This document shows, piece by piece, positions 3,926 to 31,989 of a DNA stretch of 32,000 nucleotides. How positions within the stretch are numbered: position 1 is the stretch's first letter; every line of letters starts with the position of its first letter. Where the stretch lies: the NCBI GenBank assembly GCA_030149205.1, contig JASBSB010000001.1, forward strand, positions 1 through 32,000. The letters run 5' to 3'. The notes under the pieces are model-generated. The model ran no database searches and had not been told where the DNA came from. It was given only the letters and a program-made list of their open reading frames with translations. Position numbers and translations under genes: made by a program. The DNA comes from Candidatus Heimdallarchaeota archaeon. Lineage in GTDB: Archaea > Asgardarchaeota > Heimdallarchaeia > Heimdallarchaeales > Kariarchaeaceae.

Positions 3926-3929
3926 TGTA

Positions 3930-7859: not shown

Positions 7860-8870
7860 CTAAGATAACTCTAATTCTGAGACTTTTACACCTGAGGATC
7901 CGAGTGCTTTTCCAAGGTCCGTTCCAGAGTAAGTTTCACCATGCAGGGAAAATCTAATTTCATCATCTGTATAGAATTCAACTGATTCGATTTTAGATTT
8001 ATATTTCTCCAGCTTATCAACTAATTTATCGATCTTTAGCACGTAATCATCACAGGATCGAATGGCAAGATCATCCTGATCTGATACTAATTCTACCTTT
8101 TTATCGAGTTCTGATATCTGAAAGTTTCCAGGATTGTATGTAATTTGAAAGAGCAATCTTGGGTTTTGACCAATTTTTGAGCGGGTGATTAAGTGTTTGA
8201 TCCCATCCCACATTGCTTCATGGAGATTCTGAAGGTCTCCCTCTGTCAGATCAACCTCTTTTGCCCTATGTTCATTAACAACACCATAAAAACCTATTAA
8301 AGAATATGGAACCATGAATTCGGTTCTGAAAGTTTGTTGCTGAGAGCCCGATTTTGAAGCAAATGCTCCAGTTCCTTTGATTCTTTCAACAGAAACTTTG
8401 TGTAATGATTTTCCCATCTTGAACTGAACAGGGCCAGTATGTGTTATGGAACTTCCTTTTGCCGTCTTTGATTTTCCCTTTTCATCTTTATACTTAATCT
8501 CTAATGGAATTGTTCCTCCGAAAAGCCTTACATCAACACATTTTGAAATGATAGTCTTATCAAGAATATTTTTGGCCTCATATTCACTTGAGTAGTTTTG
8601 ATCTGGAAGGAACGAATTTGCTCTCTCCTTGGCATCAGGCACATTTCCATCCTCATCAGCAAGTGCATGAACAAAAATTTCTTGACCTTTTACTTCTCTA
8701 AGGAAATCCCTGATTGTTCTCTTTAATCTAACATCAGACACAAGATTGTGCATGGTCTCAGGGTCTGTTCTTGGTTTATTTTCATCTGCTGGATCTCCAT
8801 TGGGGTTGCAGTATGACGCATCATAAAGAAATAATAATTCTCTTCTATTTTGTAGTGGTGTGTTATTCAT
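7860..8870 (-). CDS. cas7: Type I-B Cas7 (Csh2-like)
   Basis: NRRELLFLYDASYCNPNGDP.DENKPR, VSDVRLKRTIRD, DVRLFGGT, TGPVQF motifs. Confidence 0.96.
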   Translation of the reverse strand: MNNTPLQNRRELLFLYDASYCNPNGDPADENKPRTDPETMHNLVSDVRLKRTIRDFLREVKGQEIFVHALADEDGNVPDAKERANSFLPDQNYSSEYEAKNILDKTIISKCVDVRLFGGTIPLEIKYKDEKGKSKTAKGSSITHTGPVQFKMGKSLHKVSVERIKGTGAFASKSGSQQQTFRTEFMVPYSLIGFYGVVNEHRAKEVDLTEGDLQNLHEAMWDGIKHLITRSKIGQNPRLLFQITYNPGNFQISELDKKVELVSDQDDLAIRSCDDYVLKIDKLVDKLEKYKSKIESVEFYTDDEIRFSLHGETYSGTDLGKALGSSGVKVSELELS

Positions 8871-10731: not shown

Positions 10732-11449
10732 GTCTTTGTCTCCTTGAGAGTTTGAATGGTTGGAGAAAACCAAATCCCCATGCTCGCTTTTGTCCAACTC
10801 CGGCTTCTTGAAGCCAAGATTTGAATTTAGATAGATCCTTTCGCTGGTTTAGAAATAGTTTATTCCAGGTGGATCCAATAAATAGGAACCCCTCCCCCTC
10901 CCGCCTGATATTAACAGGAACCTCGTTCCTTATCTCAAGCTGTGTGAATAAATTTCCATCGAAATTAAAGTCCTCGTTACCAGAAAATGTTCTGTATCTT
11001 TGAATAGCTCTCCTTTTGATCTCATCATTAAATGATTGTAAAGTCATGGAGTTCCTTTTGAAAGAGTGATATCTGTTTTGGTTGGCGTCCTCAACAAGAA
11101 CCACAGGACTTCCAGTTTTTAGGTAATTCAACTGAGGAAGCTTTGATTTTGTTATCTCCGTAATTTTGCATCCATAAAACTCTGTTTCAATATTTTCTGT
11201 GTGATATCTATAAAAGCTCTCAATCAGATTGTCATAAGGACTTGAGACGTAAAATGTGAAGGTTTTGTTAAACCGGTCTAGATTAAACCAATCTGAAAAG
11301 ACAAAACTTTTGGAATTCGTAGAATCATGCAATTCAGAATAAGAAGTGTCTTGTAAAGCTTTGTACAAAAATCCTTGAATTGCATGCTTATTTGGTCTCA
11401 CCCTTCCTTTTTGATGAGTTAATGACTCAAATTTATACTGAATTCTCAT
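10724..11449 (-). CDS. cas6: Cas6 endoribonuclease (likely start MRIQYKF at 11449)
   Basis: HAIQGFLY, LHD..KSFVFS, TGSPVV and C-terminal G-rich loop GVGQKRAWGFG. Confidence 0.94.
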   Translation of the reverse strand: MRIQYKFESLTHQKGRVRPNKHAIQGFLYKALQDTSYSELHDSTNSKSFVFSDWFNLDRFNKTFTFYVSSPYDNLIESFYRYHTENIETEFYGCKITEITKSKLPQLNYLKTGSPVVLVEDANQNRYHSFKRNSMTLQSFNDEIKRRAIQRYRTFSGNEDFNFDGNLFTQLEIRNEVPVNIRREGEGFLFIGSTWNKLFLNQRKDLSKFKSWLQEAGVGQKRAWGFGFLQPFKLSRRQRHV

Positions 11450-11471
11450 AGTTATCAATATAAGAATCTTC

Positions 11472-15396: not shown

Positions 15397-15969
15397 CTAC
15401 TTCTTTTTTCGAGTTAACCCAAATAGTATACCCATAGCTATAGCAGTATTAATACCAAATCCAATGATTGCTGCCTTGAAAGGAACCAAATAAGATAGTC
15501 TTACAAGTGCATAGGACACATTTCTGGCTTTTTGCTGGTCAGCTGGGGAAAGTGGACCAAGATAAAGACTTTGACCTACGAACAATGCGATGAGCATTGA
15601 AACAATTAAACTAAGGAATACAAATACAACAAATGAGAATAATGCATGCTTAAAGTTCTTAGATAGAAATCCTAAGACTACGATGCTAATTAGGAAAACT
15701 GCAAAATAGAGGACATAGGAAATGTTGAAATTCAGCGAAACAAAACCCTCAGTTCCAACCAAGGTAAATACTAGCATTGACCATACATCAAAGAGCATTC
15801 CCAAGTTTGTAAGATCCGAGCTACCAGAGATTTGAAATTTAGTCAACAGGTCAGTCATAGGTATACTTGGCTTTAACAATCCAACCAGGGTCAGAGCATA
15901 GAGCAATGCAAAATTTATCACCAGACCAACCACACCTGGAATCAGTAAAAGAAGACTCTTGAGATTCAT
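15397..15969 (-). CDS. Hypothetical polytopic membrane protein (about 4-5 TM)
   Basis: Several hydrophobic segments, basic C-terminus RKKK; 4-nt ATGA overlap with the upstream 1063-aa gene. Confidence 0.85.
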   Translation of the reverse strand: MNLKSLLLLIPGVVGLVINFALLYALTLVGLLKPSIPMTDLLTKFQISGSSDLTNLGMLFDVWSMLVFTLVGTEGFVSLNFNISYVLYFAVFLISIVVLGFLSKNFKHALFSFVVFVFLSLIVSMLIALFVGQSLYLGPLSPADQQKARNVSYALVRLSYLVPFKAAIIGFGINTAIAMGILFGLTRKKK

Positions 15970-18900
15970 AATCTGAGCCTCCTCTTACGCTTCATCACAA
16001 CAGGAAGAGCAATTAAAAAGGTAGGAATAACTATCCAATTGAATGGTAATGAGTTGGCAAGACTTTCTACCTGTCCAGCTGCGCTTTGCACTGATTTTGC
16101 CTTGGGAACCAAGTTTGCACCCCAGTTTAATGGAAGGTCTACCCAGTAATTCATAACATAAAAGCTCTGAGTTTTACCTAACTTCTTTAGACTCGTCTGA
16201 TAGACAGCCATTCCGAAAGAGTACTGGAGATCAGTGTACTCCTGAGGATTACTTATACTACCAATATCTCCTCTGAATGCTGTATTTTGTCCAACGGCTG
16301 TTGAGTGAGAACCAGTCTTTGTGATTCCCCAGGTTGCTCCTCCTCCACCTCCTATTCCAAAGAGAGTTGCACCTCCTCCAAGAGAGTAATCTTCAGACAC
16401 GGAGTAAGTGAATCCAGTTGCTTTTTCAGTGCTTAAATCTATCTGAACTCCTTGAGAACCGCCTCCTTGTCCCACAGTTCTTTGAGTTGACAATATTGGG
16501 TTTGAGATAAAGTTTGTGAAGTAAGATTTGTTGTGATAAGAAGGAACATATCCTGGAACATGTTTAAAGAGGTTACTTCCAAGTTCTACATCAGCTGTAT
16601 TTTTGTGAGCGTTATAGTATTGAATTGTCTCTAGCAACAGGCTTGGAGCTCTAGGTACATTCAAAGTGAAATTTGTTCCAATTAGCCTTGGGTCCTGAGA
16701 ATCTAGGATTCTATACACATAGTAATCAATTATAGTGGTTGTATAAACCACGAAGTCGTCCTTATATCCACCCGAGAAATCATCAGTTTTTATGATGGTG
16801 GTCGTCTTTGTGTTAGTTTTCGTAAACTCTTCATTAAAGTTATACTGAAACTCTCCACCAACTTCAAAAACATCAAAGAAGGTTGGTTTGATCTGAGCTT
16901 GTGCATAAGCACCATATGAAGAGGTTACCTCGTTTTCTGCTGTTTTAGAGTTGGTGACTGATTTCCCAAAGGTTGATCCTGTACTCGCAAAATTTTGTGA
17001 GGTTCCTTCCTGACTTGGAGGCGCTGCTGCTACCACCATTATCTCACCACCAGTTTTAAATTGCCCAAATTGGTCTGTGTATTCGAGCGTAAACTTGTCA
17101 CCATTTGAATCTCCAATTGAAATATGGATGACATAGCGAGAATCATGAGTCTGGAAAAATTGATCAAGAAGTTTAAACTGCGTTCCATCCCATTGATACA
17201 CTTTGATACCATATCCACTGTTTCCATAAGAAAATGAAGTGGTCATTTCTGGAATTGTGTCCTGGTTTATGTCACCAAACCCTAATTCACCCCACATTCC
17301 ATAGTTACCGGGTAAATCACCGTTCTTTGAATTTCCTGGGTAATAGTCCACTTTTCCGGTGAAGAGAGATTTGTAGCTTTGAGATTTCCCAGCAAACATA
17401 TGTAAAGTCATATCCGGAAGAAGAACAAATAGTTCTGACTCCTTATTTTGATTTATATCATAGGAATATATCCTAGGAATTGTTCCCTTGAATGTGGGAT
17501 TATCAGCAATCAAAGACTTTTCCAGAACAAAGTTGTTTAGTTTGTTACCATAGATTAAAACTGATCCTAGATTCTTGTCAGATTTTATTACCGCAATCTC
17601 AGAGACAGAATCATTGTTATAATCACCAACTGTGGCTTGGACTCCCATGTTGACCTGATCCCAAGTTAAATCTTTAAGAATTTTAAAATCAGTGGATTTG
17701 TCGTCTAGAACTATCACATGAGGCTTTTTCTGTGCGTCTATGCCAGAAATGACGAGTTCTTGACTTGAATCTGAGTCTAAGTTCCCAGCACTCATGGATT
17801 TTGTACCAAAATATTCAATATCAAAATCACCTGTATTTTGCATTGAATAGGTGATTTGGGGTAGTTGTATTTTCTTAATAAACTTAGGACCATTTCCGAA
17901 ATTATTTGGGAGTGCAGATGAATTTGAAATCTTATAGATTTCAAGAGGGGTTGCTCCTTGAGGAACCTCAGTAGTGATAGTTCCGTAATTTCCTTTAACA
18001 TAGACCCCTGTCTTAGATTTTATTGTCCCAAAAGTGTTAATATAAACCCCTCCTGATAGACTTGAAGAAGTTGTGTCACCTTCAAATGAAAACATTTCAA
18101 GTGAGTTAAGTTTTGTCACATTTTGGAGACTCAATGCACCAGTCTGATTATTTACAGACCAATAATTCCCAGATGTAGATTTTAGTGCAAAAGTCTGACC
18201 ATACCTAATTGTAGAGTTATCATTTTTATTAAATGGGTTTATCAAAGTGAATTTTTGTCCTGCCTCAGCCTTATTCAATCCAGGAAGTTCCGTCGTGGCA
18301 AGAGTATTAGAAGTGCTTCCAGAGATATATCTTGCGCTTCCAGATTTTGTTCTTAGTGATATGTCTTGCCCGTAAGCAATTTGACCTGGAATCACAGAAT
18401 TCATTAGATCGTCAAAGACCCAAATTGTGGTTTTACCATTTTCTACACCCATTACAACGAACTCATTCATTATATCATTATCTAGATTTAGTGTTAGTAT
18501 TTGTGGGATTTGAATATTACTTGAACCAGGGTAATTTTGTGCACCTCCAAAAGGGTTTGCATAGTTGTTAATTAAGAACGATTTATCTTTAGGACCCCAA
18601 GTCTCAATAACCCTTAATTGTATTCCTACATCAGGACAGCCTGTGCATTTATATGTTGTTGTGAATGCCATGATTAAATCTGACCTAAAATTACCGTCTA
18701 CATCACCATTAGCAACATTGGATGGTCTTGCTTCATCTCCATTGGACATAATGTTTGGTCCAACAACGGTTTTTGCAAGCTCTTGTGAATAATTAAAGTT
18801 AGGTTTGTTTCGACTACTAATGATTGAATATCCCAGATCTCCGGGAAAATTCGCATAATCAATCTGTCTCCAAACAGAAGCCATTAGCTCATTGCTGCCA

Positions 18901-19157
18901 ACCAGAGCTATTTTTCCTTTGCTCAATGGTTGTTTAGAGACTGGAGCTTGATTTAGAACAGGTTCGTTTGAGTTCTTTGTGGCAACTAATGTTTCCACTC
19001 CATTTCCATCTGTTTCATAGACCTTGTAGCTTACACCCGTATCAAAAATCGAGGTTTTCTTTGCAATGGTAGGCTGAAAGCTATTTGCTGAGGTCTGTAT
19101 TATCAAAATATACAGAAGGAATGAGATTACTATAATTACAGGAAGTTTCTTCCTCAT
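15966..19157 (-). CDS. Large cell-surface protein: signal peptide, FG-GAP/VCBS-type Ca-binding repeats, beta-trefoil-like insert, Ser/Thr-rich C-terminal region, C-terminal TM anchor
   Basis: MRKK plus hydrophobic N-terminus; repeats GDVDGNFRSDL, NLDNDIMNEF, GNLDSDSSQEL, GDYNNDSVSEI, DINQNKESEL, GDINQDTIPEM, GDSNGD; C-terminal WIVIPTFLIALPVVMKRKRR. Confidence 0.85.
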   Translation of the reverse strand: MRKKLPVIIVISFLLYILIIQTSANSFQPTIAKKTSIFDTGVSYKVYETDGNGVETLVATKNSNEPVLNQAPVSKQPLSKGKIALVGSNELMASVWRQIDYANFPGDLGYSIISSRNKPNFNYSQELAKTVVGPNIMSNGDEARPSNVANGDVDGNFRSDLIMAFTTTYKCTGCPDVGIQLRVIETWGPKDKSFLINNYANPFGGAQNYPGSSNIQIPQILTLNLDNDIMNEFVVMGVENGKTTIWVFDDLMNSVIPGQIAYGQDISLRTKSGSARYISGSTSNTLATTELPGLNKAEAGQKFTLINPFNKNDNSTIRYGQTFALKSTSGNYWSVNNQTGALSLQNVTKLNSLEMFSFEGDTTSSSLSGGVYINTFGTIKSKTGVYVKGNYGTITTEVPQGATPLEIYKISNSSALPNNFGNGPKFIKKIQLPQITYSMQNTGDFDIEYFGTKSMSAGNLDSDSSQELVISGIDAQKKPHVIVLDDKSTDFKILKDLTWDQVNMGVQATVGDYNNDSVSEIAVIKSDKNLGSVLIYGNKLNNFVLEKSLIADNPTFKGTIPRIYSYDINQNKESELFVLLPDMTLHMFAGKSQSYKSLFTGKVDYYPGNSKNGDLPGNYGMWGELGFGDINQDTIPEMTTSFSYGNSGYGIKVYQWDGTQFKLLDQFFQTHDSRYVIHISIGDSNGDKFTLEYTDQFGQFKTGGEIMVVAAAPPSQEGTSQNFASTGSTFGKSVTNSKTAENEVTSSYGAYAQAQIKPTFFDVFEVGGEFQYNFNEEFTKTNTKTTTIIKTDDFSGGYKDDFVVYTTTIIDYYVYRILDSQDPRLIGTNFTLNVPRAPSLLLETIQYYNAHKNTADVELGSNLFKHVPGYVPSYHNKSYFTNFISNPILSTQRTVGQGGGSQGVQIDLSTEKATGFTYSVSEDYSLGGGATLFGIGGGGGATWGITKTGSHSTAVGQNTAFRGDIGSISNPQEYTDLQYSFGMAVYQTSLKKLGKTQSFYVMNYWVDLPLNWGANLVPKAKSVQSAAGQVESLANSLPFNWIVIPTFLIALPVVMKRKRRLRL

Positions 19158-19416: not shown

Positions 19417-20256
19417 TCAATATTTATTTAGAAGATTTATGGACAAAACCGTAACCAACAAACTCATTATTGCTAATACTCCTAAAATTGTATTAATTTT
19501 TTTCGAATATCTGTTGATATTTGAGGGGTCAACAGGTCTTTGGATTATAAAGACTAAACCCACGAGGAAAATTGGTAGGAAGATGATTGGTAGAATTTTA
19601 GTAATAAAACCATAAAGGCTAATGAAGATCATTGTAAACTGTAACATCCTGTAAACCCTTAAGGTGGATTTAAATCCAAGCAGATGTGCGAATGTGGTAT
19701 AGTGTTTAGAATCAATTTCAAAATCACGAAGCTGACCTGCAATTTGACCTGAAATTGAACTTAAAAGCAGAACAGATAAAATTAAGAGATCAATGTTTTG
19801 AAATTTCAAGTTCATTAGATAGATGACAACAATATAGGGAGCGAATTGTACAAAAATCCCATGTATAGCAATATCAAAACCAGGACGTTTTTTGAACTGA
19901 AATGGTTTCATAGAATATGAGTAAACACCGAACATCAGGATTGCCAATACTATAATTCCCTCAGTATTAAACAGTAAAAATACATAAATGAATCCTATAA
20001 TAAGTGTTAATGTAACAATAATAAGAAGAGAGGCTGGAAGCTCATATATCACAAAAAAATTCTTCTGCCTTTTGTTTGGGTCTAATCTGTCCTCTTCTCT
20101 ATCAATGTAATCATTCAATGCAAACCCAAATACGTACCCAATGGTTAGCGTAAAAACTAGTAAAAACCCCTTAATGGAATAAGAGGAATTGAAAACCAAT
20201 GGGAGTGATGATATAATAAGGGTGGATGCCCAAATGTCCCGAACTATGCTTAGCAC
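19417..20256 (-). CDS. UbiA-family prenyltransferase
   Basis: Asp-rich motif NDYIDREEDRLD, YSMKPFQFK, second motif QLRDFEID..TT; multiple TM helices. Confidence 0.92.
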   Translation of the reverse strand: MLSIVRDIWASTLIISSLPLVFNSSYSIKGFLLVFTLTIGYVFGFALNDYIDREEDRLDPNKRQKNFFVIYELPASLLIIVTLTLIIGFIYVFLLFNTEGIIVLAILMFGVYSYSMKPFQFKKRPGFDIAIHGIFVQFAPYIVVIYLMNLKFQNIDLLILSVLLLSSISGQIAGQLRDFEIDSKHYTTFAHLLGFKSTLRVYRMLQFTMIFISLYGFITKILPIIFLPIFLVGLVFIIQRPVDPSNINRYSKKINTILGVLAIMSLLVTVLSINLLNKY

Positions 20257-20264
20257 TAAATTGG

Positions 20265-21374
20265 CTATGTATAGACAAAATAAAAGGTTTCATCAAAAAT
20301 TCCATCCAAATTGATATAAGAGTGCCCTTTTGTAAATACATCTGAATCTTCTCCATACGTGTCATGAATTCTTTGAATCGTCTTCTTCATTGAGTTTCTA
20401 ATGAGACTGGAATCTCTCTTAACAAAAGCTGCAATGAAAAAATTGCTTGACCAATTTAAAAGAATAAGCTGGTTATCAAACTCAATAGTTTTTGGGTAGA
20501 CCTCTGTGTTATAGAAATCACTCATTACTGTAAAAATTGCTGAAAGAGCACCTGAGATCAACATTGTCGGTGTGTCTGCATCTTTACTTTCAAATTCCTT
20601 ATAGCTTTTGAGTAACCCACTGTTGTTTACTACAATTATTCTTTCTATCTTTTCAGGTAGAACGAATACTATCCTAGGGTCGATTAAATAGGCATAGGTT
20701 AAACCTCCCATGGTAATCGTTAAGTTTATGAACGCTATAGATATAAGACTCCTCTCCACAAAGTTTCCAAGTATTAAAATTGGAATCTGTGACAAAAGTC
20801 CATAGTACGTAAAATAGGTAATGATCTTCATTTGCTTTGTCAGAGTTTCGTTGGTGTTTACCAAGCTTTGGTTAAGAACTCTAAGGTCTTTATAGACATA
20901 ATAGAGAAGAACAATTAAGAACAGGACATTAAAAACATTGATGACCATAAACACCTCATCGTATAACGAGACGTTTTTTTGAATAGCAATGAGGATCAGG
21001 GGTACATAACCCGCAATGATTAGCATCGTGAAGGAAATCCAAATAGTCATCCTTTTCCATTGAATGTGTGGATAGATAAGCAGGGTATAAAATGTGGAAA
21101 GAAAGCTTAATCCTAATACAATTCCTACGTTACTAATCCCTGAAAGGATCCCAAATGGGAGCATAAACTCAACTTGTTTTTTAGGAAAATACGGAAAGTA
21201 CATTTCTTCAATGTAGACTGATAATATCCAAATCATTGTGGTGAGTATTGCAAAAAATAGTAACCAGTTCATTTTCACCTTTGCCTGTTCTCTGCGACGC
21301 AATATAATAACCGAAATAGCGACTGCTAATGTCATAGATACATAGAACATTACTTGTGAAAAAAACGGTAACAT
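20265..21374 (-). CDS. 7TM membrane protein with cytoplasmic C-terminal longin/roadblock-like domain (paralog A; likely start MLPFF at 21374)
   Basis: Seven hydrophobic segments, then a soluble domain of about 130 aa (IIVVNNSGLL..LISGALSAIFTVM..ILL..FFIAAFV..IRNSMKKTIQRI). Fold assignment by pattern only. Confidence 0.65.
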   Translation of the reverse strand: MLPFFSQVMFYVSMTLAVAISVIILRRREQAKVKMNWLLFFAILTTMIWILSVYIEEMYFPYFPKKQVEFMLPFGILSGISNVGIVLGLSFLSTFYTLLIYPHIQWKRMTIWISFTMLIIAGYVPLILIAIQKNVSLYDEVFMVINVFNVLFLIVLLYYVYKDLRVLNQSLVNTNETLTKQMKIITYFTYYGLLSQIPILILGNFVERSLISIAFINLTITMGGLTYAYLIDPRIVFVLPEKIERIIVVNNSGLLKSYKEFESKDADTPTMLISGALSAIFTVMSDFYNTEVYPKTIEFDNQLILLNWSSNFFIAAFVKRDSSLIRNSMKKTIQRIHDTYGEDSDVFTKGHSYINLDGIFDETFYFVYT

Positions 21375-21532
21375 TATTGTAGTATAAGCTTCATGGTTTT
21401 TAAATTTACACACCTATCAATAGAAAATATTCTGAAGAATAATACGAATAAATATTCTATTAAAAAAATATTAGATGAAAAATTTCCTTTGGCTCGGAAT
21501 AACTCTTTATACTAAATATAAAAACTATATTT

Positions 21533-22786
21533 GTGTCCTTAAAAGTCGCTGTGATTGGGTCAGGAATTACCGGTCTTTCACTTGCTTATTTTTTAAAGGA
21601 TGAAGAAATTGAACTTCAGGTGTTTGAAAGAGGGGACAGAATAGGAGGAAGAATAAAGACAGTTGAATTTTCTGAAGAACTAGTTGAAATTGGGGCTGTT
21701 TACTATCATTCCACAAATAAACTTGTTTCAGAATTAGTTAATGATTTTAATTTAAATTTTAAACCACTTGAAAGGCAGCGTGTAGGTCTCTGGGATGGTG
21801 AGAGATTTGTGTTTAAGACAAGCAATTCAGAGCTTTTAACTCAATTGAAGATGCTCTGGAAGTTTGGTTTTGGTATAACAAAGTTAGGCGGTCTTATAGG
21901 TGAAGTCAAGGATATGAACTCTTCATTTTATACTGGGTTACCCTTCACGACCGTTGAGGAATTTCTTGGAGATGGTATGATGAGAAAATCAACTTCTGAA
22001 ACAGTGGTAAGGTACCTAAAGTCTAGAGGATTTTCAGATAAAATTATTCAGAACCTTGTGTTACCAACTCTGAGATATGTGTATCATCATGCTGGATCAA
22101 GTGATTCTAATGCTTTTTCAGGAATTGTATCCTTGATCGCATATGACAGTGATCCTGTTTATTATCTTCCAGAGGGAAATTTTGCGCTTATCGAAAATTT
22201 AGCATCAAAAATTTCAAAAGTACATCTTAATTCACCAATAGAGAAGATTGAACAGCTTGAAAATGGTGTAATGATAAATGATGAACTAAAATTTGATATG
22301 GCTGTGATTTGTACCCCATTGGAGATAAGCAACATTGAACTGACAAATGTCAACAACAAGGGATTGATGATAAATACCTTTAAAGGATATTACAAGACAC
22401 TTGTAAAAGGATATCCAAATCTGGATTATTTTGGTACTAAAAGTATGAACGATCTTCCCCCAATGATACTCACAACGATGACATCACCATTTTATGGATT
22501 TGAAAAAATTAGAGATTCAACCATAGGAGGTGACATTTATGAAATCACCTCATCAACCCAACTTTCAGATGACATCTTAAATAATCTATTTACCAAAATT
22601 GAGATTAGCCAATCCTTTGAATTGCCTTACACATTTGCTGATTTAAAGGTTAAAAACTCATTTCCCCCGATTATAATTAGTAAGGACATCTACTACGCAA
22701 ACGCGATGGACACAATTATTGCAACAATGGAATCATCCGTGTTAATGGGTCTAAACATCAGTAAGTTAATAATGGAGCGAACATAA
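21533..22786 (+). CDS. FAD-dependent oxidoreductase resembling prenylcysteine oxidase/lyase (PCYOX1 family)
   Basis: GxGxxG (VIGSGITG), ERGDRIGGRI, EIGAVYYHSTN, VGLWDGERFVF, MLWKFG, GFSDKIIQNLVLP, NAFSGIVSL, TLVKG, IYYANAMDTIIATMESSVLMGLNISKL. Confidence 0.75.
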   Translation: MSLKVAVIGSGITGLSLAYFLKDEEIELQVFERGDRIGGRIKTVEFSEELVEIGAVYYHSTNKLVSELVNDFNLNFKPLERQRVGLWDGERFVFKTSNSELLTQLKMLWKFGFGITKLGGLIGEVKDMNSSFYTGLPFTTVEEFLGDGMMRKSTSETVVRYLKSRGFSDKIIQNLVLPTLRYVYHHAGSSDSNAFSGIVSLIAYDSDPVYYLPEGNFALIENLASKISKVHLNSPIEKIEQLENGVMINDELKFDMAVICTPLEISNIELTNVNNKGLMINTFKGYYKTLVKGYPNLDYFGTKSMNDLPPMILTTMTSPFYGFEKIRDSTIGGDIYEITSSTQLSDDILNNLFTKIEISQSFELPYTFADLKVKNSFPPIIISKDIYYANAMDTIIATMESSVLMGLNISKLIMERT

Positions 22787-22863: not shown

Positions 22864-23976
22864 TCATGCATAAACAAAATAGAAGGTTTCATTAAATATA
22901 TCACTAAGATCCAAACCTTGGTAAGACTTAACTAAAATCTCAGGCGTCCTTGCGTATTTCTTTATGATTTCGGTTACCGTATTCTTCAGTGAGCTTCTCA
23001 GCAAGGTAGATTCCCTTTTTACAAAGGCTGCAACAAAAAATGTATCAGACCATTCTAGTAGGATTAAGTTATCTTGAAATTTTATGGTGTTGGGATACAC
23101 CTCTGAGTTATAAAAGTCACTCATGACAGTAAATATTGCTGAAAGAGCACCAGATATAAGAGAGGGAGGCAAATTATCATTTGGTTTTACAAAGTTTTTC
23201 TCATGACGAAGAACCCCATCATGACCAACCACAATCACCTTTTCAATTCTTTCTGGAAGAACAAATACTATCCTAGGGTCTATAACATAGGTATAGACCA
23301 ATGCAACCAGAGATATTATGAGGGTAATGAATGCCACTGAGATGAGATTTCGATCAATAAACCTAGCAATTATCAAAATCGGGATGATAGGGATGATCCC
23401 CATTAGAATTGAAAATGTGAGAAATCTTACCTGTGTGTCTAGGGTTTTGTTTCTTCCCTTCAGGTTTTCACGTAAGAACCTTAAATCTCTCATCAACACA
23501 TAGATAGCCAGACCAAGAAACAAAAGATTGACAAAGTTTGTAAGCAATGCAATTTGATTGAAGAGCGATACATTTCTTGTTGGTGCAACATAAAACAGGG
23601 ATATATACAAAGTAAAGACAACAATATCTAGAGTAACTAGAAACCCTGTCCAAATGATATCGATGGTCGGACTTATCAACAACTGAACAAACATTGTCAG
23701 GAAAATGATTCCTGTTAGTATGCCAACATTACTCGTAAAAGCTAGAATCGTGAAGGGAACCATTAGGTTAGGATCATTGGTTTGATAATATTGAAAGTAA
23801 GTTTCCTGAAGATATGTGGATGTGATCCAAAATATAACACTCACAATTGTAAGGATTAACAACCAATTCATTCTGATCTTCACTTGTTGCCTGTTTCTTA
23901 ATATAATTCCAAGAACCAGTATTCCAAGTACCACAGAAAAAAATGAAAAAAACTGGAAGACTCCGGACATTACCAT
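22864..23976 (-). CDS. 7TM membrane protein with C-terminal longin/roadblock-like domain (paralog B)
   Basis: Collinear with 20265-21374; identical 18-aa block LISGALSAIFTVMSDFYN; shared ILR.R.Q.K..MNWLL, DPRIVFVLPE and F.ETFYFVY. Confidence 0.7.
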   Translation of the reverse strand: MVMSGVFQFFSFFSVVLGILVLGIILRNRQQVKIRMNWLLILTIVSVIFWITSTYLQETYFQYYQTNDPNLMVPFTILAFTSNVGILTGIIFLTMFVQLLISPTIDIIWTGFLVTLDIVVFTLYISLFYVAPTRNVSLFNQIALLTNFVNLLFLGLAIYVLMRDLRFLRENLKGRNKTLDTQVRFLTFSILMGIIPIIPILIIARFIDRNLISVAFITLIISLVALVYTYVIDPRIVFVLPERIEKVIVVGHDGVLRHEKNFVKPNDNLPPSLISGALSAIFTVMSDFYNSEVYPNTIKFQDNLILLEWSDTFFVAAFVKRESTLLRSSLKNTVTEIIKKYARTPEILVKSYQGLDLSDIFNETFYFVYA

Positions 23977-24169
23977 GTATATTTAAAGAAAATATTTCTC
24001 ACATTTAAACTTAAGTAAGCAATTTGGGGTATTCGGCGAAAATTTATTGATTTCAACAAATGATAAATGATTCATTTTGAGTTGAATTCTTTTAAAAAAT
24101 ACAAATTTGATAGTTTTTATTTCATTCAAAAGAAATAATATTTAAAAGTGAAAGGAGCATGTGCTATAC

Positions 24170-24589
24170 ATGAATGAAAACAGTATCAAAATTTCTACTA
24201 TAATACAAAGCGATTTATCAACTGTATGGAAATCATGGGTTGAACCAAAACATATTGAGAGTTGGGCTGCGGCCAGTGACGATTGGCATGCCTCTGATGT
24301 AAGTAATGAGCTAAAACTAGGAGGGAGGTTCAAAACACATATGGCTGCGAAAGATGGATCTGCTGGATTTGATTTTTCAGGAACTTACACCAGTGTTGAG
24401 GAGAAAAAAGTGATTGAATACAATTTAGATGATGGAAGAAAAGTTAGTGTCCGCTTTTCTCCAAAGCGCAATGGGGTTGAAGTGGTGCAGATGTTCGAAC
24501 CAGAGCAAGAAAACTCTCGAGAGATGCAGCAACAAGGATGGCAAGCAATTCTTGATAACTTTAAAAAGTACACAGAAAAGTTAGAATAA
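24170..24589 (+). CDS. SRPBCC/AHSA1 (START-like) domain protein
   Basis: VWKSWVEPKHIESW, GGRFKTHMAAKDGSAGFDFSGTY, FEPE..N..EMQQQGWQAILDNFKKY. Confidence 0.92.
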   Translation: MNENSIKISTIIQSDLSTVWKSWVEPKHIESWAAASDDWHASDVSNELKLGGRFKTHMAAKDGSAGFDFSGTYTSVEEKKVIEYNLDDGRKVSVRFSPKRNGVEVVQMFEPEQENSREMQQQGWQAILDNFKKYTEKLE

Positions 24590-24782
24590 GAGCATTAACT
24601 TGAGAAGCATTACTCCGCTTGAAATAGAGAACAATGTTGAAACTAAACAGATAAGACATTAAACACCAATGAAATAGAAACCACAAATTTGTGGAATAAT
24701 GGACAAAAATGTACTTTTCTAGAGAAAATACAAAATTCTGTCCCGATAGGATTTTGATGAATTACTTTCCTGTAAGGATATA

Positions 24783-25883
24783 ATGTTAAGTGAATCTTCA
24801 CCTGTAACTAGCCAAGAGATAGGGTCACAAGATTTCCAATATCTAATTGAAAAGACTCTTGATGGAAATGGATTAAATTTTGAGGAATCCAAGTTATTAA
24901 TGCGGTTTATAATGTCAGGTGAATTGAATCAGATACAAACCAGCGGGATTCTCACCGCATTAAGGTCCAGGCTTGAGACAGCAGAGGAAATAGCCGGATT
25001 TAGCTCAATCATGCTTGATAAAGCAAGAAGAATTCAATATAATGGAGTTTTACCTTTAATAGATATTGTCGGTACAGGAGGTTCGAGATTCAAAACTTTC
25101 AATGTTTCCTCAACATCGGCGATCATTCTTTCGAGCCTTGATATAGCTGTGGCAAAGCATGGTAATCGAAGTAGCACCAGTAAATCAGGTTCTGCAGACT
25201 TTTTTGAAGAATTGGGGGTTAACATTCATGTAGATCCTAAAAAATCTGAAGAAATATTAAATAAGACAGGATTTGCTTTCATGTTTGCCCCCTTATATCA
25301 TCCAGCGATGAAGTTTGTTATCCCTGTCAGAAAACAGCTAAAAATACGAACAATATTCAATTTACTTGGTCCATTAACCAATCCGGCACAGGTTAAATCT
25401 CAGGTTACAGGTTTGTTTTCGCGAAAACTTCTTATGCCAGTTGGTGAATCACTGAAAAAGCGTGGATACGAGAACGTAGTACTTGTCAGTAATGAAATTG
25501 GGGCAGATGAATTTATTCCTAAGGGTATCAACCATGTAGTTGAGTTAAGAAACAATGAATTATTTGAAACTAAACTTCAAGCAAAAGATTTTGGATTACC
25601 AGGAATTGAATTGAAAGTTGTTCAAAACCGTAGCTCAGTGGAGTCTGCTGAGTTAGCAGTGAGACTCTTTCTTGGGGAGAACCATCCGATTCTTCCTTTC
25701 ATTCTTATGAACAGTGCTGTTGGATTAAAGGTTGCTGGAAAGGTAGATTCTTACCCAGAAGGTGTGGATATGGTTCAAGAGCAGCTTTTTAGTGGAAATG
25801 TTATAGATAAATTGCTTGAAATTGTTAAGACTACAGAAGGGAATAGTGAAAAGTTGAAAACATTAATTGAAAGGTTTGAATAA
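24783..25883 (+). CDS. trpD: Anthranilate phosphoribosyltransferase
   Basis: DIVGTGG..TFNVS, AKHGNRSSTSKSGSAD, FMFAPLYHPAMK, RTIFNLLGPLTNP. Confidence 0.96.
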   Translation: MLSESSPVTSQEIGSQDFQYLIEKTLDGNGLNFEESKLLMRFIMSGELNQIQTSGILTALRSRLETAEEIAGFSSIMLDKARRIQYNGVLPLIDIVGTGGSRFKTFNVSSTSAIILSSLDIAVAKHGNRSSTSKSGSADFFEELGVNIHVDPKKSEEILNKTGFAFMFAPLYHPAMKFVIPVRKQLKIRTIFNLLGPLTNPAQVKSQVTGLFSRKLLMPVGESLKKRGYENVVLVSNEIGADEFIPKGINHVVELRNNELFETKLQAKDFGLPGIELKVVQNRSSVESAELAVRLFLGENHPILPFILMNSAVGLKVAGKVDSYPEGVDMVQEQLFSGNVIDKLLEIVKTTEGNSEKLKTLIERFE

Positions 25884-26763
25884 TTTGAATAGTTCTATAT
25901 CTATCAATTCTGGAAGAAATTCAGGACACCTTCAAAAGTTTCTTAGAAACGCTGAATCTTTAATTGAGTCTGGCTATTATCTTAAGGAAACAGCCCCTGA
26001 CTCTTTGGTTTTGAATCACAAGGGTAACAAGTCTAGAAGTTTTGTTTCAGCTATCAAGGAAAAAAGGTTTATCTTGATTTCAGAGTTAAAGCAGTCCTCT
26101 CCCAGTCATTCAAAGAAATATTTTCCTGACAATATGATTATAGATAGATCAACCACATTGGTCAAGTATTCAGATGCAATTTCTATTTTAACTGAACCTA
26201 ACTTCTTTTCAGGAGAGCTAAACCGTCTAAGTAAGTTTCAAAATTCTTCAAAACCAGTGTTAATGAAAGATTTTATTATTTCGAAGGAACAGATTCTTGC
26301 GGGAATTTCAGCGGATGCATTTCTGTTGATTAAAAGAATCCTCTCTCCTGATTCTCTCCTCGAACTGGTAAATTTTATCAATAAATTAGATAAAGAATGT
26401 ATTATAGAGGTAGATAGCGAGTCTGATTTTGTGAATTTGTTAAACTTAAAGTTTAATGGAGTATTGGCTATTAACAATCGAAATTTGGCAACATTAAAAA
26501 TTGACCAAAATTTAGCAAGCAGAATATTTAAAGAATATGAACCTAAAAGACCTGTTTTGAGCTTTTCAGGAGTAAGTGACCCAACAGATGTCGAGAATAT
26601 TGTTGGTTCAGGTTTAAGTGGAGTTCTAATCGGGACAGCATTATCTAAATCAAGAAACCCAGGGAAACTTTTGGAAAGATTTAACACAATAATAAAATCC
26701 AGTCTTACGAAGAATCAAGAGAAGAGCAGTTTAACTATAAAGGAAAGAGGTGCAATTAATTGA
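25867..26763 (+). CDS. trpC: Indole-3-glycerol-phosphate synthase
   Basis: ISELKQSSPS, ISILTEPNFFSG, PVLMKDFII, IIEV, INNRNL, LIGTAL. Confidence 0.92.
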   Translation: MKGLNNLNSSISINSGRNSGHLQKFLRNAESLIESGYYLKETAPDSLVLNHKGNKSRSFVSAIKEKRFILISELKQSSPSHSKKYFPDNMIIDRSTTLVKYSDAISILTEPNFFSGELNRLSKFQNSSKPVLMKDFIISKEQILAGISADAFLLIKRILSPDSLLELVNFINKLDKECIIEVDSESDFVNLLNLKFNGVLAINNRNLATLKIDQNLASRIFKEYEPKRPVLSFSGVSDPTDVENIVGSGLSGVLIGTALSKSRNPGKLLERFNTIIKSSLTKNQEKSSLTIKERGAIN

Positions 26764-27623
26764 AAAACACTCCTATCTTGAAACTTTGTGGATTCATGAC
26801 TCAAAATGAGATAAATTTCGCATTAAAATATGACCCAGATTATATCGGTATAGTAGTTGGCTCTCCTAAATCTAAGCGAAATGTTAGTTTAGATGATTTC
26901 ATAGACTTATCAGTACCTAAGAACCAGAAGGTATTAGTTACTGTGAATACTGATCTAAGAACTCTTACGAAGTATTTCAATGAACAAGACATAATAATTC
27001 AGTTACATGGACAATCGAGAAATCTATACTTTTCTAATTTTATAGACTCTAGCACAAGAATAGCATTATCAATTAATTATGAAGAATTAACCAATGCTTT
27101 GAACAGATTTGAAGAAGTTAGAGTAAGAGAAAATAAAGTACCCTTTGAGAATCTTTTGATAGAATCTATAGAAAAATCGGATATAAATTCTTTATCACCA
27201 TCAAAGGTTGAAAAAATAATTCAAAATATTGAATATTTTGTCCTAGATACTAATAAGTATGGGTACGGGGGAACTGGTATTTGCTGGGATTGGAAACATA
27301 TCCCAAATACGTCCACACCTTTGTTAATTGCAGGTGGTATAAATTCAGATAATGTCATTGAAGCATTAAATCAGACCAATGCATGTGGAGTTGATTTATC
27401 CTCAGGAATTGAAATTACAGTCCCTGAAAACGAAATCAAAGGGCTTAAAGAAGAAAAATTATATCAACCTCAGCGAGAGACATCACCTTATCATTTTTAC
27501 AGAAATGAGTCAGGTTCGGGGGTATATTGGAGGAAGGATGAAAGGCTAATTAAGGCAATTCATGATAGAATTATGAAATTTGAAAATCAAAGGAGGAAAC
27601 AAAGTGTTAAAGCAAAATTCTGA
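26760..27623 (+). CDS. trpF: Phosphoribosylanthranilate isomerase with two insertions
   Basis: [33 protein letters not shown] ... KD. Confidence 0.9.
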
Positions 27624-28860
27624 GAAAGAAATAATTTCAACTGACAGAAATGAGATTCAAATTGAATCAAAGAAATATTCAGATTATCCTGTTAATGGAT
27701 TTTATGGAAAGTTTGGTGGAGCCTATGCACCAGAGATCCTTCAACCTGCCCTAGGAGAGCTGCTAAAAGCCTTTGAAGAGCTAAAATCAGATGAAAATTT
27801 TCTATCAGAATTACATTATCTCAATAGACATTTGGGTGGTAGACCCACCCCATTGTACAAACTGAACAGGTTGACTAAAAAGTTTGGGAACGCACCAATA
27901 ATTCTGAAGAGAGAGGATCTTGTGCATGGTGGTGCACACAAGTTTAACAACGTTATCGGTCAGGCTTTGGTAGCAAAGTTTTTGGGTAAACCTCGGATAA
28001 TTGCTGAAACTGGTGCTGGACAACATGGTGTGGCTACAAGTATTGTAGGAGCTGCTTTAGGCTTAGAAACAGAGATATTTATGGGAGAGGTAGATATCCA
28101 AAGGCAAATGCCAAATGTCCAAAGAATGAAGCTGCTTGGAGCAAAAGTGACAGCTGTGAAGTCCGGGAGTCGAACATTAAAAGATGCGGTTAATGAGGCA
28201 ATGAGAAATTGGGTTGCCACTGTCGAAGACACACATTATCTCATAGGATCTGTCGTAGGCCCACATCCATTTCCTCTTATGGTAAGGCATTTTCAATCTG
28301 TAATTGGGAAGGAACTCAAATCTGAATTCTTTGAAACCTACGGGAGACTGCCAAGTCATGTTGTTGCATGTGTGGGAGGTGGATCTAATGCTGCTGGAAC
28401 TTTTTATCCTCTAATTGATGATGATGTTGAGCTCATAGGTGTTGAAGCTGGTGGTCGAGGAACTGACTTAGGTGAAAACAGTGCCACACTAAACTTTGGA
28501 TCTCCAGCCATTATCCATGGAGCAAAATCTTACTCAATTCAAGACAATGACGGTCAAATAATTGAGACACACTCAATTTCTGCTGGATTGGACTATCCAG
28601 GGGTTGGTCCAGAGCATTCATTTTGGAAGGAGAGCGGGAGAGTTAGATACACCTCTATCACAGACACAGAAGCTCTTCAGGCATTCAATTTGTTATGTAA
28701 ATATGAAGGGATCATCCCTGCATTAGAAAGTTCCCATGCGCTTGCATATGCCCTCAAACTCTCTAAGGAATTAGATAGCACAGAAGAGATTGTTGTCACT
28801 TTATCGGGAAGAGGTGATAAAGACCTTAACTCAGTTTTAAATCTACAGGAGAAAGAATAA
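27580..28860 (+). CDS. trpB: Tryptophan synthase beta chain (TrpB1 type); start uncertain
   Basis: [22 protein letters not shown] (PLP Lys), [48 protein letters not shown]. Confidence 0.98.
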
Positions 28861-28861
28861 T

Positions 28862-29647
28862 TTGTTATTAGAAAACCGTCCTAAATCCAGTCTCAGAGAT
28901 AAACTCAATCAAATTAAAGACAAAGGTGAAGGGATATTATCAATTTATCTCACTTTGGGTTTTCCATCAAAAGAGGAGACAGGAGAGCTGATTGACCTTC
29001 TCTTTAGATCAGGTGCAGATATCGTTGAAATTGGAATACCATTTAGTGATCCAAGTGCTGATGGATCAACCATTCAATTTACCTCTCAAAAGGCTCTTGA
29101 AAATGGTATCAGAGTTAAAGATACTTGGTCAATATTAAGGAACACAAAGAACAGAAAAAACACTGTCCTTATGACCTATGGAAATATTCCCTTTCATTAT
29201 GGGTACCAAAATTTCGCATCTGATGCCCTTGAATCTGGAGCCGAAGGGATAATCCTGCCAGACATTCCACCAGAACTGTTTCCAGCAGAATTAAAATCTC
29301 TTCAACCTATATTTCTTCTAACACCACTAACCGGAGAGAAAAGGTTACATATGGTCGCTGAAAGAAGTTACGGTTTTAACTATATTGTATCTCAACTAAA
29401 TGTTACAGGAGTTCAATCAAATGCTGATAAAAGGGTGAAAAATGTAATTTCACAGGTGAAAAAAATTACTCCAAAAACACCAAATCTCATAGGATTTGGT
29501 GTTTCAAATGAGCAAGATGCTAAAAACAGTATGAAAATTGGAGCGGATGGAATTATTATAGGATCTGCATTTCTAAAACTGTTAATTGATAGTAAATTTT
29601 CAGAGATTGAAGATTATATCTCAGGGATTAAATCAGCTATTTCTTGA
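28862..29647 (+). CDS. trpA: Tryptophan synthase alpha chain
   Basis: YLTLGFP, EIGIPFSDPSADGSTIQ, LMTYGN, PDIPPE, GVTG, IGFGVS, DGIIIGSA. Confidence 0.97.
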   Translation: MLLENRPKSSLRDKLNQIKDKGEGILSIYLTLGFPSKEETGELIDLLFRSGADIVEIGIPFSDPSADGSTIQFTSQKALENGIRVKDTWSILRNTKNRKNTVLMTYGNIPFHYGYQNFASDALESGAEGIILPDIPPELFPAELKSLQPIFLLTPLTGEKRLHMVAERSYGFNYIVSQLNVTGVQSNADKRVKNVISQVKKITPKTPNLIGFGVSNEQDAKNSMKIGADGIIIGSAFLKLLIDSKFSEIEDYISGIKSAIS

Positions 29648-30628: not shown

Positions 30629-30888
30629 AAAAATATATGTTAATGCCCCAAAATTGTAGTCTAAACATTATATAAAGGTAACTTGCCACATTATTAGTTA
30701 GTAACTTAAAAGTGTTCCAAAAAGAATAGATATCTAAATTTCGAGGTTGGTATAATTTACAATTGAATCTGGACCATTATTAGGAAATCGAAGCTGCGTA
30801 TAGGTTATCGGAATTGAATCACCAAAAATGTGGTGAAATGGTTATTTTATTCCATAACTTTTACAAATTAGGAAACGTACCAATTTTC

Positions 30889-31989
30889 ATGAGTTATGAA
30901 AGTAAGTTGAATCAATTACGTACTAATATACGTGAATTAGATTCAAAAATTGTGAATCTACTTAAGGAACGATTGGAGCTTGCTGTGGAAATTGGAAAGA
31001 TTAAATCAGAGTTGAAATTGCCTGTGAAGAATTTTCAAGTTGAAAAAGAAGTTATTCAACGAGCAAGGTTATTAAGTGAGCAATCTGGATTAGATCCAGA
31101 TTTCATGGAAAATATTATGAGCCTAACAATCAATGCCTCTGTTAATAAGCAGTTACAGGAGGTTAAATCTACCCCAGTTTTGCTTGAGGATTCACAGAGA
31201 GTTTTGGTGGTTGGTGGTTTGGGTAAGATGGGTGATTGGTTGTTGGGCTTCTTCCAATCTTCTGGATACATTGTGCATGTGGCAGATATTAAAGTAAGGG
31301 AGGAGGATGATACACATTTCAAAACATTACCCAATGATCAAAACTATGATTATATATTCATAGCAACCCCACTTGACAGACTTGGTGAAGACCTAAAAAA
31401 TGCTGCTAGGTCTTTTCCTGATTCCATTATAATAGAAATTGGTTCTTTAAAGTCCCACTTAATAGATGCGATAGCAGAAGTGATCAAAAGTGGTGGAAAG
31501 GTTGTCTCAATACATCCTATGTTCGGAGCAGATGTTGTGAATTTATCCGGGAGAAAACTAATTATCTGTACAAATGGGTTACCAGAGGAGGAACGAATGA
31601 CTGAAGCACTCTTTTCAGACACAACAGTAGAAATATCACATTTAAGGTTGAATGAACATGATAAGTATATTCTATACACTCTGGGTCTCTCCCATCTCAT
31701 CAATCTTTTGATGGGTGATGTTCTCCAATCCTCTGAATATGACTTTCCTTCACTTCGAAGAGTGGCTGGTACAACCTTTGATAAACAGATGCTAACCACC
31801 TTAGAAGTCTTTTCTGAGAATCCTTATCTCTACTATTCTATTCAACATTTAAACAAATTTCGAAGAAACTTATTTTTTGAGATGCAGGATTCGTTAAACA
31901 GGCTTATGTTCGCAATAGAAGGAGACGAACCCTCTGAATTTATTGAACTAATGGAACAGGGGAGAATGTTTTTGCTGGGAGAAAATTAA
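30889..31989 (+). CDS. tyrA: Bifunctional chorismate mutase/prephenate dehydrogenase (likely start MSYESK at 30889)
   Basis: AroQ-type LRTNIRELDSKIVNLLKERLEL..IGKIK; Rossmann VGGLGKMG; EIGSLK, SIHPMFG, HDKY...GLSH. Confidence 0.92.
   Translation: MSYESKLNQLRTNIRELDSKIVNLLKERLELAVEIGKIKSELKLPVKNFQVEKEVIQRARLLSEQSGLDPDFMENIMSLTINASVNKQLQEVKSTPVLLEDSQRVLVVGGLGKMGDWLLGFFQSSGYIVHVADIKVREEDDTHFKTLPNDQNYDYIFIATPLDRLGEDLKNAARSFPDSIIIEIGSLKSHLIDAIAEVIKSGGKVVSIHPMFGADVVNLSGRKLIICTNGLPEEERMTEALFSDTTVEISHLRLNEHDKYILYTLGLSHLINLLMGDVLQSSEYDFPSLRRVAGTTFDKQMLTTLEVFSENPYLYYSIQHLNKFRRNLFFEMQDSLNRLMFAIEGDEPSEFIELMEQGRMFLLGEN

Follow-up and report, generated by a model that had tools for sequence, protein, structure and literature searches.

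An intact PCYOX-family flavoprotein in a Heimdallarchaeota genome, encoded beside UbiA and 7TM-Roadblock genes

A protein of 417 amino acids (aa) encoded in the genome of a Candidatus Heimdallarchaeota archaeon (assembly GCA_030149205.1) is an intact, divergent and full-length flavoprotein of the PCYOX family, represented in Pfam by PF07156 (Prenylcys_lyase). Its gene lies in a stretch of 32,000 nucleotides (nt), hereafter the window, that comprises positions 1 to 32,000 of contig JASBSB010000001.1 (G000:C4:1-32000, where G000 is the window genome). To our knowledge, work on PCYOX enzymes has been limited to animals and plants, where they catalyze the final step in the degradation of prenylated proteins. 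Their reaction is a rare flavin-dependent C-S oxidation, in which S-farnesyl- or S-geranylgeranyl-L-cysteine is cleaved to cysteine, an aldehyde and H2O2. The archaeal gene is repeatedly linked to genes for a UbiA-family prenyltransferase and for a membrane protein with a C-terminal Roadblock domain (7TM-Roadblock), and we favor, with a probability of about 0.55, a reading in which its product is a cytoplasmic, signal-less and probably membrane-peripheral flavoenzyme acting on an isoprenoid conjugate tied to the neighboring UbiA protein, with the 7TM-Roadblock proteins as sensors or regulators.

21533-22786, plus strand: PCYOX-like flavin adenine dinucleotide (FAD) oxidoreductase gene, GTG start, 417 aa, uninterrupted frame.

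Family membership, fold and conserved residues

An initial annotation, made from the sequence alone, had proposed this open reading frame (ORF) as a eukaryote-type prenylcysteine oxidase; its exact coordinates on the plus strand were reproduced, and all the motifs that it quoted are present in the translation. PF07156 covers residues 94-416 of the product (E 3e-36, 125.7 bits, gathering cut-off 27), with positions 1-353 of the 363 of the profile being spanned, and scores 126.3 bits at the same ORF in a six-frame search of the genome. The N-terminus additionally matches NAD_binding_8 (E 2.8e-14) and Amino_oxidase in Pfam. The possibility that the best profile would be a protoporphyrinogen or amine oxidase lacking PF07156 did not materialize, since PF07156 is well above its cut-off, whereas a search of NCBIfam returned only protoporphyrinogen-oxidase matches that are sub-threshold (52.7 bits vs a cut-off of 97.85) and limited to the Rossmann N-terminus.

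The sole full-length sequence match in the PDB is 9fxq, "Ancestral PCYOX1" (E 8.1e-31, query 4-412 vs chain 12-457), an ancestral mammalian enzyme (PMC11530802) that also combines an FAD Rossmann domain with a prenylcysteine-oxidase domain of PF07156; the two proteins are collinear over ca. 410 residues, with 24% identity. The remaining matches in the PDB are confined to the first 60-100 residues or so of the window protein (about 4-90). An AlphaFold2 model, built from an alignment of 27 sequences, is confident (pLDDT 91.9, pTM 0.90), and Foldseek ranks 9fxq at the top for it (TM 0.88, E 3.6e-34), followed by a nicotine oxidoreductase (TM 0.71), with nicotine, putrescine and monoamine oxidases all at TM ca. 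0.7. Pfam, the PDB sequence search and Foldseek thus confirm the earlier claim that the likeness to PCYOX1 goes well past the FAD fold, and it is far above chance. The blocks that the initial annotation attributed to human PCYOX1 line up, in this alignment, with their counterparts in 9fxq.

As had been noted from the sequence, the window protein has no signal peptide. Its GxGxxG motif begins at residue 9, and a longer N-terminus is not possible because the ORF already opens at the first ATG, GTG or TTG after the upstream stop codon. In contrast, eukaryotic members of PF07156 carry hydrophobic N-terminal extensions of 20-50 aa; unlike PCYOX1, the window protein also lacks targeting to the endoplasmic reticulum or lysosome and a KTEL-type tail, and is ca. 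60 residues shorter.

PCYOX1 binds FAD non-covalently and holds the isoprenoid in a long tunnel, and its mutants Y221A and V234W are inactive whereas Y433A is still active (Barone et al. 2024, PMC11530802). In the alignment with 9fxq, Tyr184 of the window protein corresponds to Tyr221 and Val199 to Val234, taking the PDB chain index as the residue number minus 20, an offset inferred because the construct spans 26-502 and the chain has 482 residues. The motifs for non-covalent FAD binding are also present, and the key residues of the protein comprise GxGxxG (9-14), E32, GGR (38-40), R181-x-x-Y184, V199, N216, D255 and E400. In family alignments, including one of 79 rows, G9, G11, G14, E32, G38, G39, R40 and E400 are invariant or nearly so, and R181, N216 and D255 are also conserved in the latter. 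The position of Tyr184 is occupied by Tyr in 72 of the 79 sequences, including all 10 rows from Asgard archaea and all eight of the Bathyarchaeota clade, 14 of the 18 Halosegnis/bacterial rows and 30 of the 31 eukaryotic ones.

The window protein departs from the family consensus at five sites, H186 (Q in the family), L364 (W), F368 (Y), A369 (P) and V373 (P). Phe368 occupies the position of the flavin-contacting Tyr433 of PCYOX1, and the W..AYP...P motif around this residue is not kept; nevertheless, this position is not defining for catalysis, because Y433A is active in PCYOX1. The Pfam score of the window copy is the lowest among the full-length, uninterrupted copies from Heimdallarchaeia and Hodarchaeota (126 vs 176-209 bits).

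Distribution and phylogeny

PF07156 occurs in a single copy in the window genome, which is 93.5% complete and assembled into 12 contigs totaling 3.31 Mb. Counting this genome, the profile is present in 6 of 41 close relatives. In a sample of 400 Asgard genomes, 12 had a match above cut-off, all of them in the class of the window genome: positives amounted to 3/11 of the other genomes of its own GTDB family (f1), 2/3 in a second Heimdall family (f4) and 6/22 in a Hodarchaeota genus. Among the genomes labeled here, G011 (Candidatus Heimdallarchaeota archaeon isolate CSMAG_823) shares the GTDB family of the window genome and G061 (Candidatus Hodarchaeota archaeon YT2_004) its class. The profile was not found in the 135 sampled genomes of the largest other family, in three genomes of the same genus that are 82-89% complete, or in any of 14 control genomes.

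An exhaustive search of 1.84 billion representative sequences retrieved 603 proteins at E<=1e-10, the best of which is 42% identical to the window protein. This search was used instead of a word-indexed one with the single protein, which gave six matches; a locus search with a six-row alignment seeded on the Rossmann motif returned mostly unrelated flavoproteins and three true full-length loci. Beyond Asgard archaea and eukaryotes, named members of PF07156 are found in Bathyarchaeota, Halosegnis longus, and metagenome-assembled genomes of Halobacteriales, Bacillota and Ardenticatenaceae (Chloroflexota). Those from H. longus and Halobacteriales are labeled "prenylcysteine lyase family protein" in RefSeq. 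The protein of H. longus (WP_075938086.1) and Bathyarchaeota entries annotated as "FAD-dependent oxidoreductase" resemble the window protein in being signal-less, uncharacterized PF07156 members, of ca. 420-450 aa, and proteins of this type are 25-30% identical to it.

The initial annotation had suggested an overlooked eukaryotic signature protein. A strict status of this kind fails, as the family is also present in other archaea and in certain bacteria, and neither it nor the label "eukaryote-type" is supported for a protein that falls in an archaeal clade. The family itself was already known and its prokaryotic members are automatically annotated in databases; what is new is its restriction, within Asgard archaea, to Heimdallarchaeia and Hodarchaeota, the distinct archaeal clade, and the recurrent cluster of UbiA, 7TM-Roadblock and PCYOX-like genes. 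Literature searches that extended to the supplementary material of Eme et al. 2023 retrieved no paper that connects PCYOX or PF07156 with Asgard archaea.

One relative from the family of the window genome, G006 (archaeon isolate Dive100_bin10.34), has a PCYOX-like gene (G006:C293:7200-8170) in which stop codons split the frame into segments of 279 and 124 aa, being either a pseudogene or an assembly error. The same genome contains a second, highly divergent PCYOX-like copy on G006:C117.

The main tree (IQ-TREE, LG+C20 PMSF, 79 rows) places the window protein among archaeal sequences, outside the eukaryotes, and we assign it to an archaeal branch common to Heimdallarchaeia, Hodarchaeota and Bathyarchaeota; many rows of the archaeal clades were assigned solely by clustering with named sequences from these three groups. 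It pairs with its closest homolog, P0008, at 100/98 (IQ-TREE supports), with a terminal branch of 0.98 vs 0.47 for P0008, and both are nested in a Heimdall clade of six rows (99/88), which a small protist clade (P0039, P0051 and P0084) joins as its sister with weak support (87/78). A second archaeal clade groups the f4 Heimdall sequences with those from Hodarchaeota and of the Bathyarchaeota type. Most eukaryotes are situated across a 92/96 branch, with the Halosegnis/bacterial clade nested among them and not with the window clade. Sequences with a hydrophobic N-terminal extension are eukaryotic wherever they are named (Heterostelium, Rhizamoeba, Flabellula, Gaertneriomyces, Antedon and an MMETSP protist). 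The window clade appears weakly nearer to the eukaryotes (65/56), in a backbone with weak support (65/56, 79/53), and a topology in which all 30 rows of the archaeal clades were constrained as one group was not rejected (approximately unbiased test, p 0.26). A quick tree rooted with amine-oxidase-like proteins lacking PF07156 put the root on a eukaryotic clade, with weak support. The phylogeny yields an archaeal placement and not one inside the eukaryotes, on a weakly supported root, and an origin of eukaryotic PCYOX from the Heimdall/Hodarchaeota lineage is no more than a possibility.

Most knowledge of the family comes from eukaryotes, and the small protist clade groups, if weakly, with that of the window protein, as might be expected after a recent transfer from a eukaryote or if the assembly were contaminated with eukaryotic DNA. 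Nevertheless, the contig that carries the gene is 995,517 bp long, and the gene is located there between archaeal type I-B CRISPR-Cas, trp and Asgard-type genes, with a GC content that resembles its surroundings; its closest relatives are archaeal and at most 42% identical, and its product has no signal peptide while the eukaryotic members have one. These results make either origin extremely improbable, and the gene is effectively neither a recent acquisition from eukaryotes nor a contaminant.

Gene neighborhood and proposed role

The PCYOX-like gene is flanked by the following features:

19417-20256, minus strand: UbiA-family prenyltransferase (Pfam PF01040, E 1.3e-16), directly downstream of the 7TM-Roadblock gene.
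20265-21413, minus strand: multi-pass membrane protein with a C-terminal Roadblock/LC7 domain (Pfam PF03259, E 1.1e-5).
21414-21532, no strand assigned: AT-rich divergent intergenic region between the 7TM-Roadblock and PCYOX-like genes (read from the sequence).
22864-23976, minus strand: second 7TM-Roadblock-like paralog, 46% identical to the product of 20265-21413 (E 3e-107).

The 7TM-Roadblock gene at 20265-21413 is divergent from the PCYOX-like gene, and the N-terminal region of its product is HisKA_7TM-like, falling in an ESM Atlas cluster described as "histidine kinase N-terminal 7TM region" with a score of 0.96. The intergenic region between both genes contains TATA-like sequences, TTTATACT/AAATATAAAAA, ca. 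20-27 nt upstream of the GTG of the PCYOX-like gene, and is a putative archaeal promoter, from which transcripts with little or no leader would start. The paralog at 22864-23976 is convergent with the PCYOX-like gene and had no Pfam match of its own at E<=0.001. The subfamily of the UbiA protein was not apparent from NCBIfam (sub-threshold matches to a generic "prenyltransferase"), a sequence search of the PDB (no match) or ESM Atlas (generic UbiA clusters).

The locus of P0008 (L089, contig JAZHCI010346664.1) has the same layout of UbiA, 7TM-Roadblock and PCYOX-like genes, and the membrane protein next to its PCYOX-like gene is 38% identical to that of 20265-21413 (E 4e-88). Two loci with other arrangements come from family f4. 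These are 7TM-Roadblock(+) <> UbiA(-) PCYOX-like(-), with a second UbiA gene 3.5 kb off, in G014 (L114), and UbiA-PAP2 <> PCYOX-like-UbiA <> 7TM-Roadblock-EamA in L099, the contig of P0159, a protein in the same 90% cluster as the PCYOX-like protein of G018 (P0011). The PCYOX-like proteins of G014 and L099 are 27-29% identical to that of the window and 33% to each other, and those of all linked loci are 27-42% identical to the window protein. Neighboring UbiA and 7TM-Roadblock genes were observed in seven genomes or contigs (G000, L089, G003, G004, G008, G014 and G018), although in G003 and G004 the pair occurs without a PF07156 gene, being in G004 beside two PAP2 genes; the pairing of UbiA with 7TM-Roadblock is more conserved than its link to the PCYOX-like gene.

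The membrane proteins belong to an Asgard family of ca. 360-390 aa that joins a HisKA_7TM-like membrane region to a C-terminal Roadblock/LC7 domain and has no kinase domain. This kinase-less family is nearly always found beside one UbiA subfamily, in seven genomes or contigs that include G003:C50, G004:C85, G008:C7, G014:C130 and G018:C206. The UbiA family as a whole is strongly expanded in the Heimdall and Hodarchaeota genomes (G006-G074), with 7-16 matches in each, which suggests that this class may possess diverse prenylated lipids or quinones.

The availability of substrates for a canonical prenylcysteine oxidase was assessed from the gene content of the window genome. The alpha subunit of protein prenyltransferases (PPTA, PF01239) gave no matches in this 93.5% complete genome. 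PF00432 matched large multi-repeat proteins and one stand-alone alpha/alpha-toroid protein of 361 aa (G000:C4:274827-275912, 51.7 bits), whose match to the beta subunit of RabGGTase in the PDB is marginal (E ca. 0.05); the check for protein prenyltransferases proposed in the initial annotation gave a single marginal candidate. Genes for ICMT-like (32.8 bits) and Rce1/CPBP-like proteins are present, but they are uninformative because both families also match control bacteria and archaea. The genome has 27 matches to the Ras family (PF00071), and none of the 25 C-termini extracted ends in CaaX, CC or CXC or has any Cys in its last 10 residues, which fits with small GTPases of Asgard archaea being anchored by something other than prenylation. 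The suggestion that the enzyme takes part in the turnover of prenylated proteins is hence not borne out, and a canonical source of prenyl-cysteine is not evident in this genome, whose incompleteness keeps the absence from being proven; the window protein, with its conserved essential Tyr, may still carry out prenyl-thioether chemistry.

In Haloferax, a route to archaeol-thioether lipoproteins depends on AliA/AliB, reported for Euryarchaeota and DPANN, and few lipobox lipoproteins are predicted in Asgard archaea (PMC12462473). Turnover of such lipoproteins was considered as a role for the window protein and discarded, given that AliA/AliB are not UbiA proteins and belong to Euryarchaeota/DPANN, and that Asgard archaea have few predicted lipoproteins.

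In the mechanism that we propose by analogy with PCYOX1, a long polyprenyl chain would enter a PCYOX1-like tunnel of the window protein, and the flavin would take a hydride from the carbon beside the heteroatom at the head of the isoprenoid conjugate; hydrolysis would then release an isoprenoid aldehyde and the free head group, as occurs in PCYOX1 with sulfur as the heteroatom. The substrate would most likely arise through the co-located UbiA protein, as its product, an intermediate or a by-product, and would thus be an isoprenoid lipid conjugate and not a prenyl-cysteine derived from CaaX proteins, and the 7TM-Roadblock proteins would probably be membrane sensors or regulators of the same module. 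A lipid is favored over a protein substrate because the UbiA neighborhood is conserved and no protein-prenylation machinery was found in the window genome. Electrons could pass to O2 or to a different carrier, as they do in dehydrogenases of the NicA2 type, NicA2 being the next-best structural relative; use of O2 is uncertain because relatives occur in Bathyarchaeota, which are mostly anaerobic.

Pathways that combine a UbiA protein with a flavoenzyme exist in other prokaryotes. The mycobacterial decaprenyl-phosphoryl-arabinose route includes Rv3806c (UbiA), Rv3807c (PAP2) and the FAD enzyme DprE1, and bacterioruberin synthesis in haloarchaea involves LyeJ (UbiA) and CrtD, a desaturase with the amine-oxidase fold. 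The loci described here would resemble them in that UbiA is situated beside PAP2 (L099 and G004) and an FAD oxidoreductase, possibly with polyprenyl-linked substrates at the membrane. However, DprE1 adopts a VAO fold and CrtD is a member of another subfamily, so that the likeness is by analogy and no orthology is claimed.

Several observations weigh against this proposal. No UbiA or 7TM-Roadblock neighbors occur around the homologs from Hodarchaeota, G006/G011, Bathyarchaeota and Halosegnis, and the UbiA linkage is therefore limited to certain lineages; a contig of the Bathyarchaeota clade has instead GT2 and cation-efflux genes, and the Halosegnis gene has unrelated neighbors. Counted as independent lineages, the linked loci number about two (f1 and f4), and the abundance of UbiA genes in these genomes raises the odds of coincidental adjacency. 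We roughly estimate the chance of the latter at ca. 1% per gene, and because of this low figure the recurrence in two families is meaningful. The window copy is also the most divergent of its clade, by its Pfam score and the five family-conserved positions that are changed, and the prokaryotic members of PF07156 are all biochemically uncharacterized. Finally, the family-wide R-x-x-Y-x-Q motif, thought to hold the cysteine head group in PCYOX1, would fit a cysteine-like substrate.

An alternative is that the protein is a canonical prenylcysteine oxidase, converting S-farnesyl- or S-geranylgeranyl-cysteine to cysteine and an isoprenoid aldehyde, with substrates derived from unrecognized S-prenylated proteins or peptides of the host or from eukaryotic detritus. 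The protein is a full member of PF07156 that keeps the essential Tyr and R-x-x-Y, and ICMT-like, Rce1/CPBP-like and PF00432 toroid genes are present in the genome, but we consider this rather unlikely in view of the lack of a detectable PPTA subunit, the marginal match of the toroid protein to RabGGTase, the matches of the ICMT and CPBP families in control organisms and the Cys-less ends of the Ras-family GTPases. The paucity of predicted lipobox lipoproteins in Asgard archaea also argues against it, and, for a protein devoid of a signal peptide, the use of external prenyl-cysteine would depend on import. A generic amine or amino-acid oxidase acting on a substrate unrelated to isoprenoids would agree with the superfamily fold and with the nicotine, putrescine and monoamine oxidases that come next in the structural comparison; this we hold to be very unlikely, since the fit of the substrate domain to PF07156 and 9fxq surpasses that to any amine oxidase by ten orders of magnitude, and the gene is repeatedly adjacent to UbiA and PAP2 genes.

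The low Pfam score, long terminal branch and altered residues of the window copy, together with its apparent absence from the three genomes of the same genus and the stop codons in the G006 gene, raise the question of whether it is a relaxed or neofunctionalized paralog, with altered specificity or little activity, that would be a poor guide to the role of the family. The frame is nevertheless intact, the AlphaFold2 model is confident throughout, the FAD motifs and Tyr184 are kept and synteny with the orthologous locus L089 is preserved, while the change of Tyr to Phe at position 368 need not matter, as Y433A of PCYOX1 is active (PMC11530802); we thus assign a low probability to this explanation. 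A similarly low one applies to a bolder extension of the UbiA-linked role, a membrane cycle in which a polyprenyl thioether or allyl ether conjugate is formed and cleaved again. The UbiA protein would join the polyprenyl to a thiol acceptor (for example cysteine, a peptide or a cofactor), from which the flavoenzyme would oxidatively take it off, and the Roadblock-domain receptors would link the state of the lipid to small-GTPase signaling; the module would then be a prokaryotic antecedent of eukaryotic prenyl-cysteine metabolism that predates CaaX prenyltransferases.

The intact archaeal branch, the confinement of the family to the Heimdallarchaeia/Hodarchaeota class within the sampled Asgard archaea and the repeated linkage to UbiA and Roadblock genes suggest that the ancestral job of the PCYOX family was in isoprenoid-lipid chemistry, and not in protein turnover. 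If so, these signal-less and probably Escherichia coli-expressible proteins would be tractable enzymes for finding a new lipid reaction, and would provide a way to ask whether the archaea most closely related to eukaryotes contain any thioether-linked isoprenoids. If the protein is simply a prenyl-cysteine oxidase, a search for S-prenylated substrates in Asgard archaea would be called for.

Other features of the window and of a linked locus

The window contains a CRISPR array at 690-2444, with a 30-nt repeat (GTTTCCAGACCATAAAGGTACTACTTAGAC) and a period of 65-67, adjoined by a type I-B-like cas operon on the minus strand (2966-11458) that codes for Cas1, Cas3 (HD and helicase), Cas5, Cas7, Cas8b/TM1802 and Cas6. 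The regions 15966-19157 and 24161-29647 contain genes for an FG-GAP repeat surface protein (1063 aa) and an AHSA1/SRPBCC protein, as well as a trpD-C-F-B-A operon, which is followed by a chorismate mutase/prephenate dehydrogenase fusion at 30814-31989. In G014, a gene for an RtcB tRNA ligase with an intein (994 aa in total; G014:C130:672-3656) is situated beside an archease gene, a few kb from the cluster of UbiA and PCYOX-like genes.

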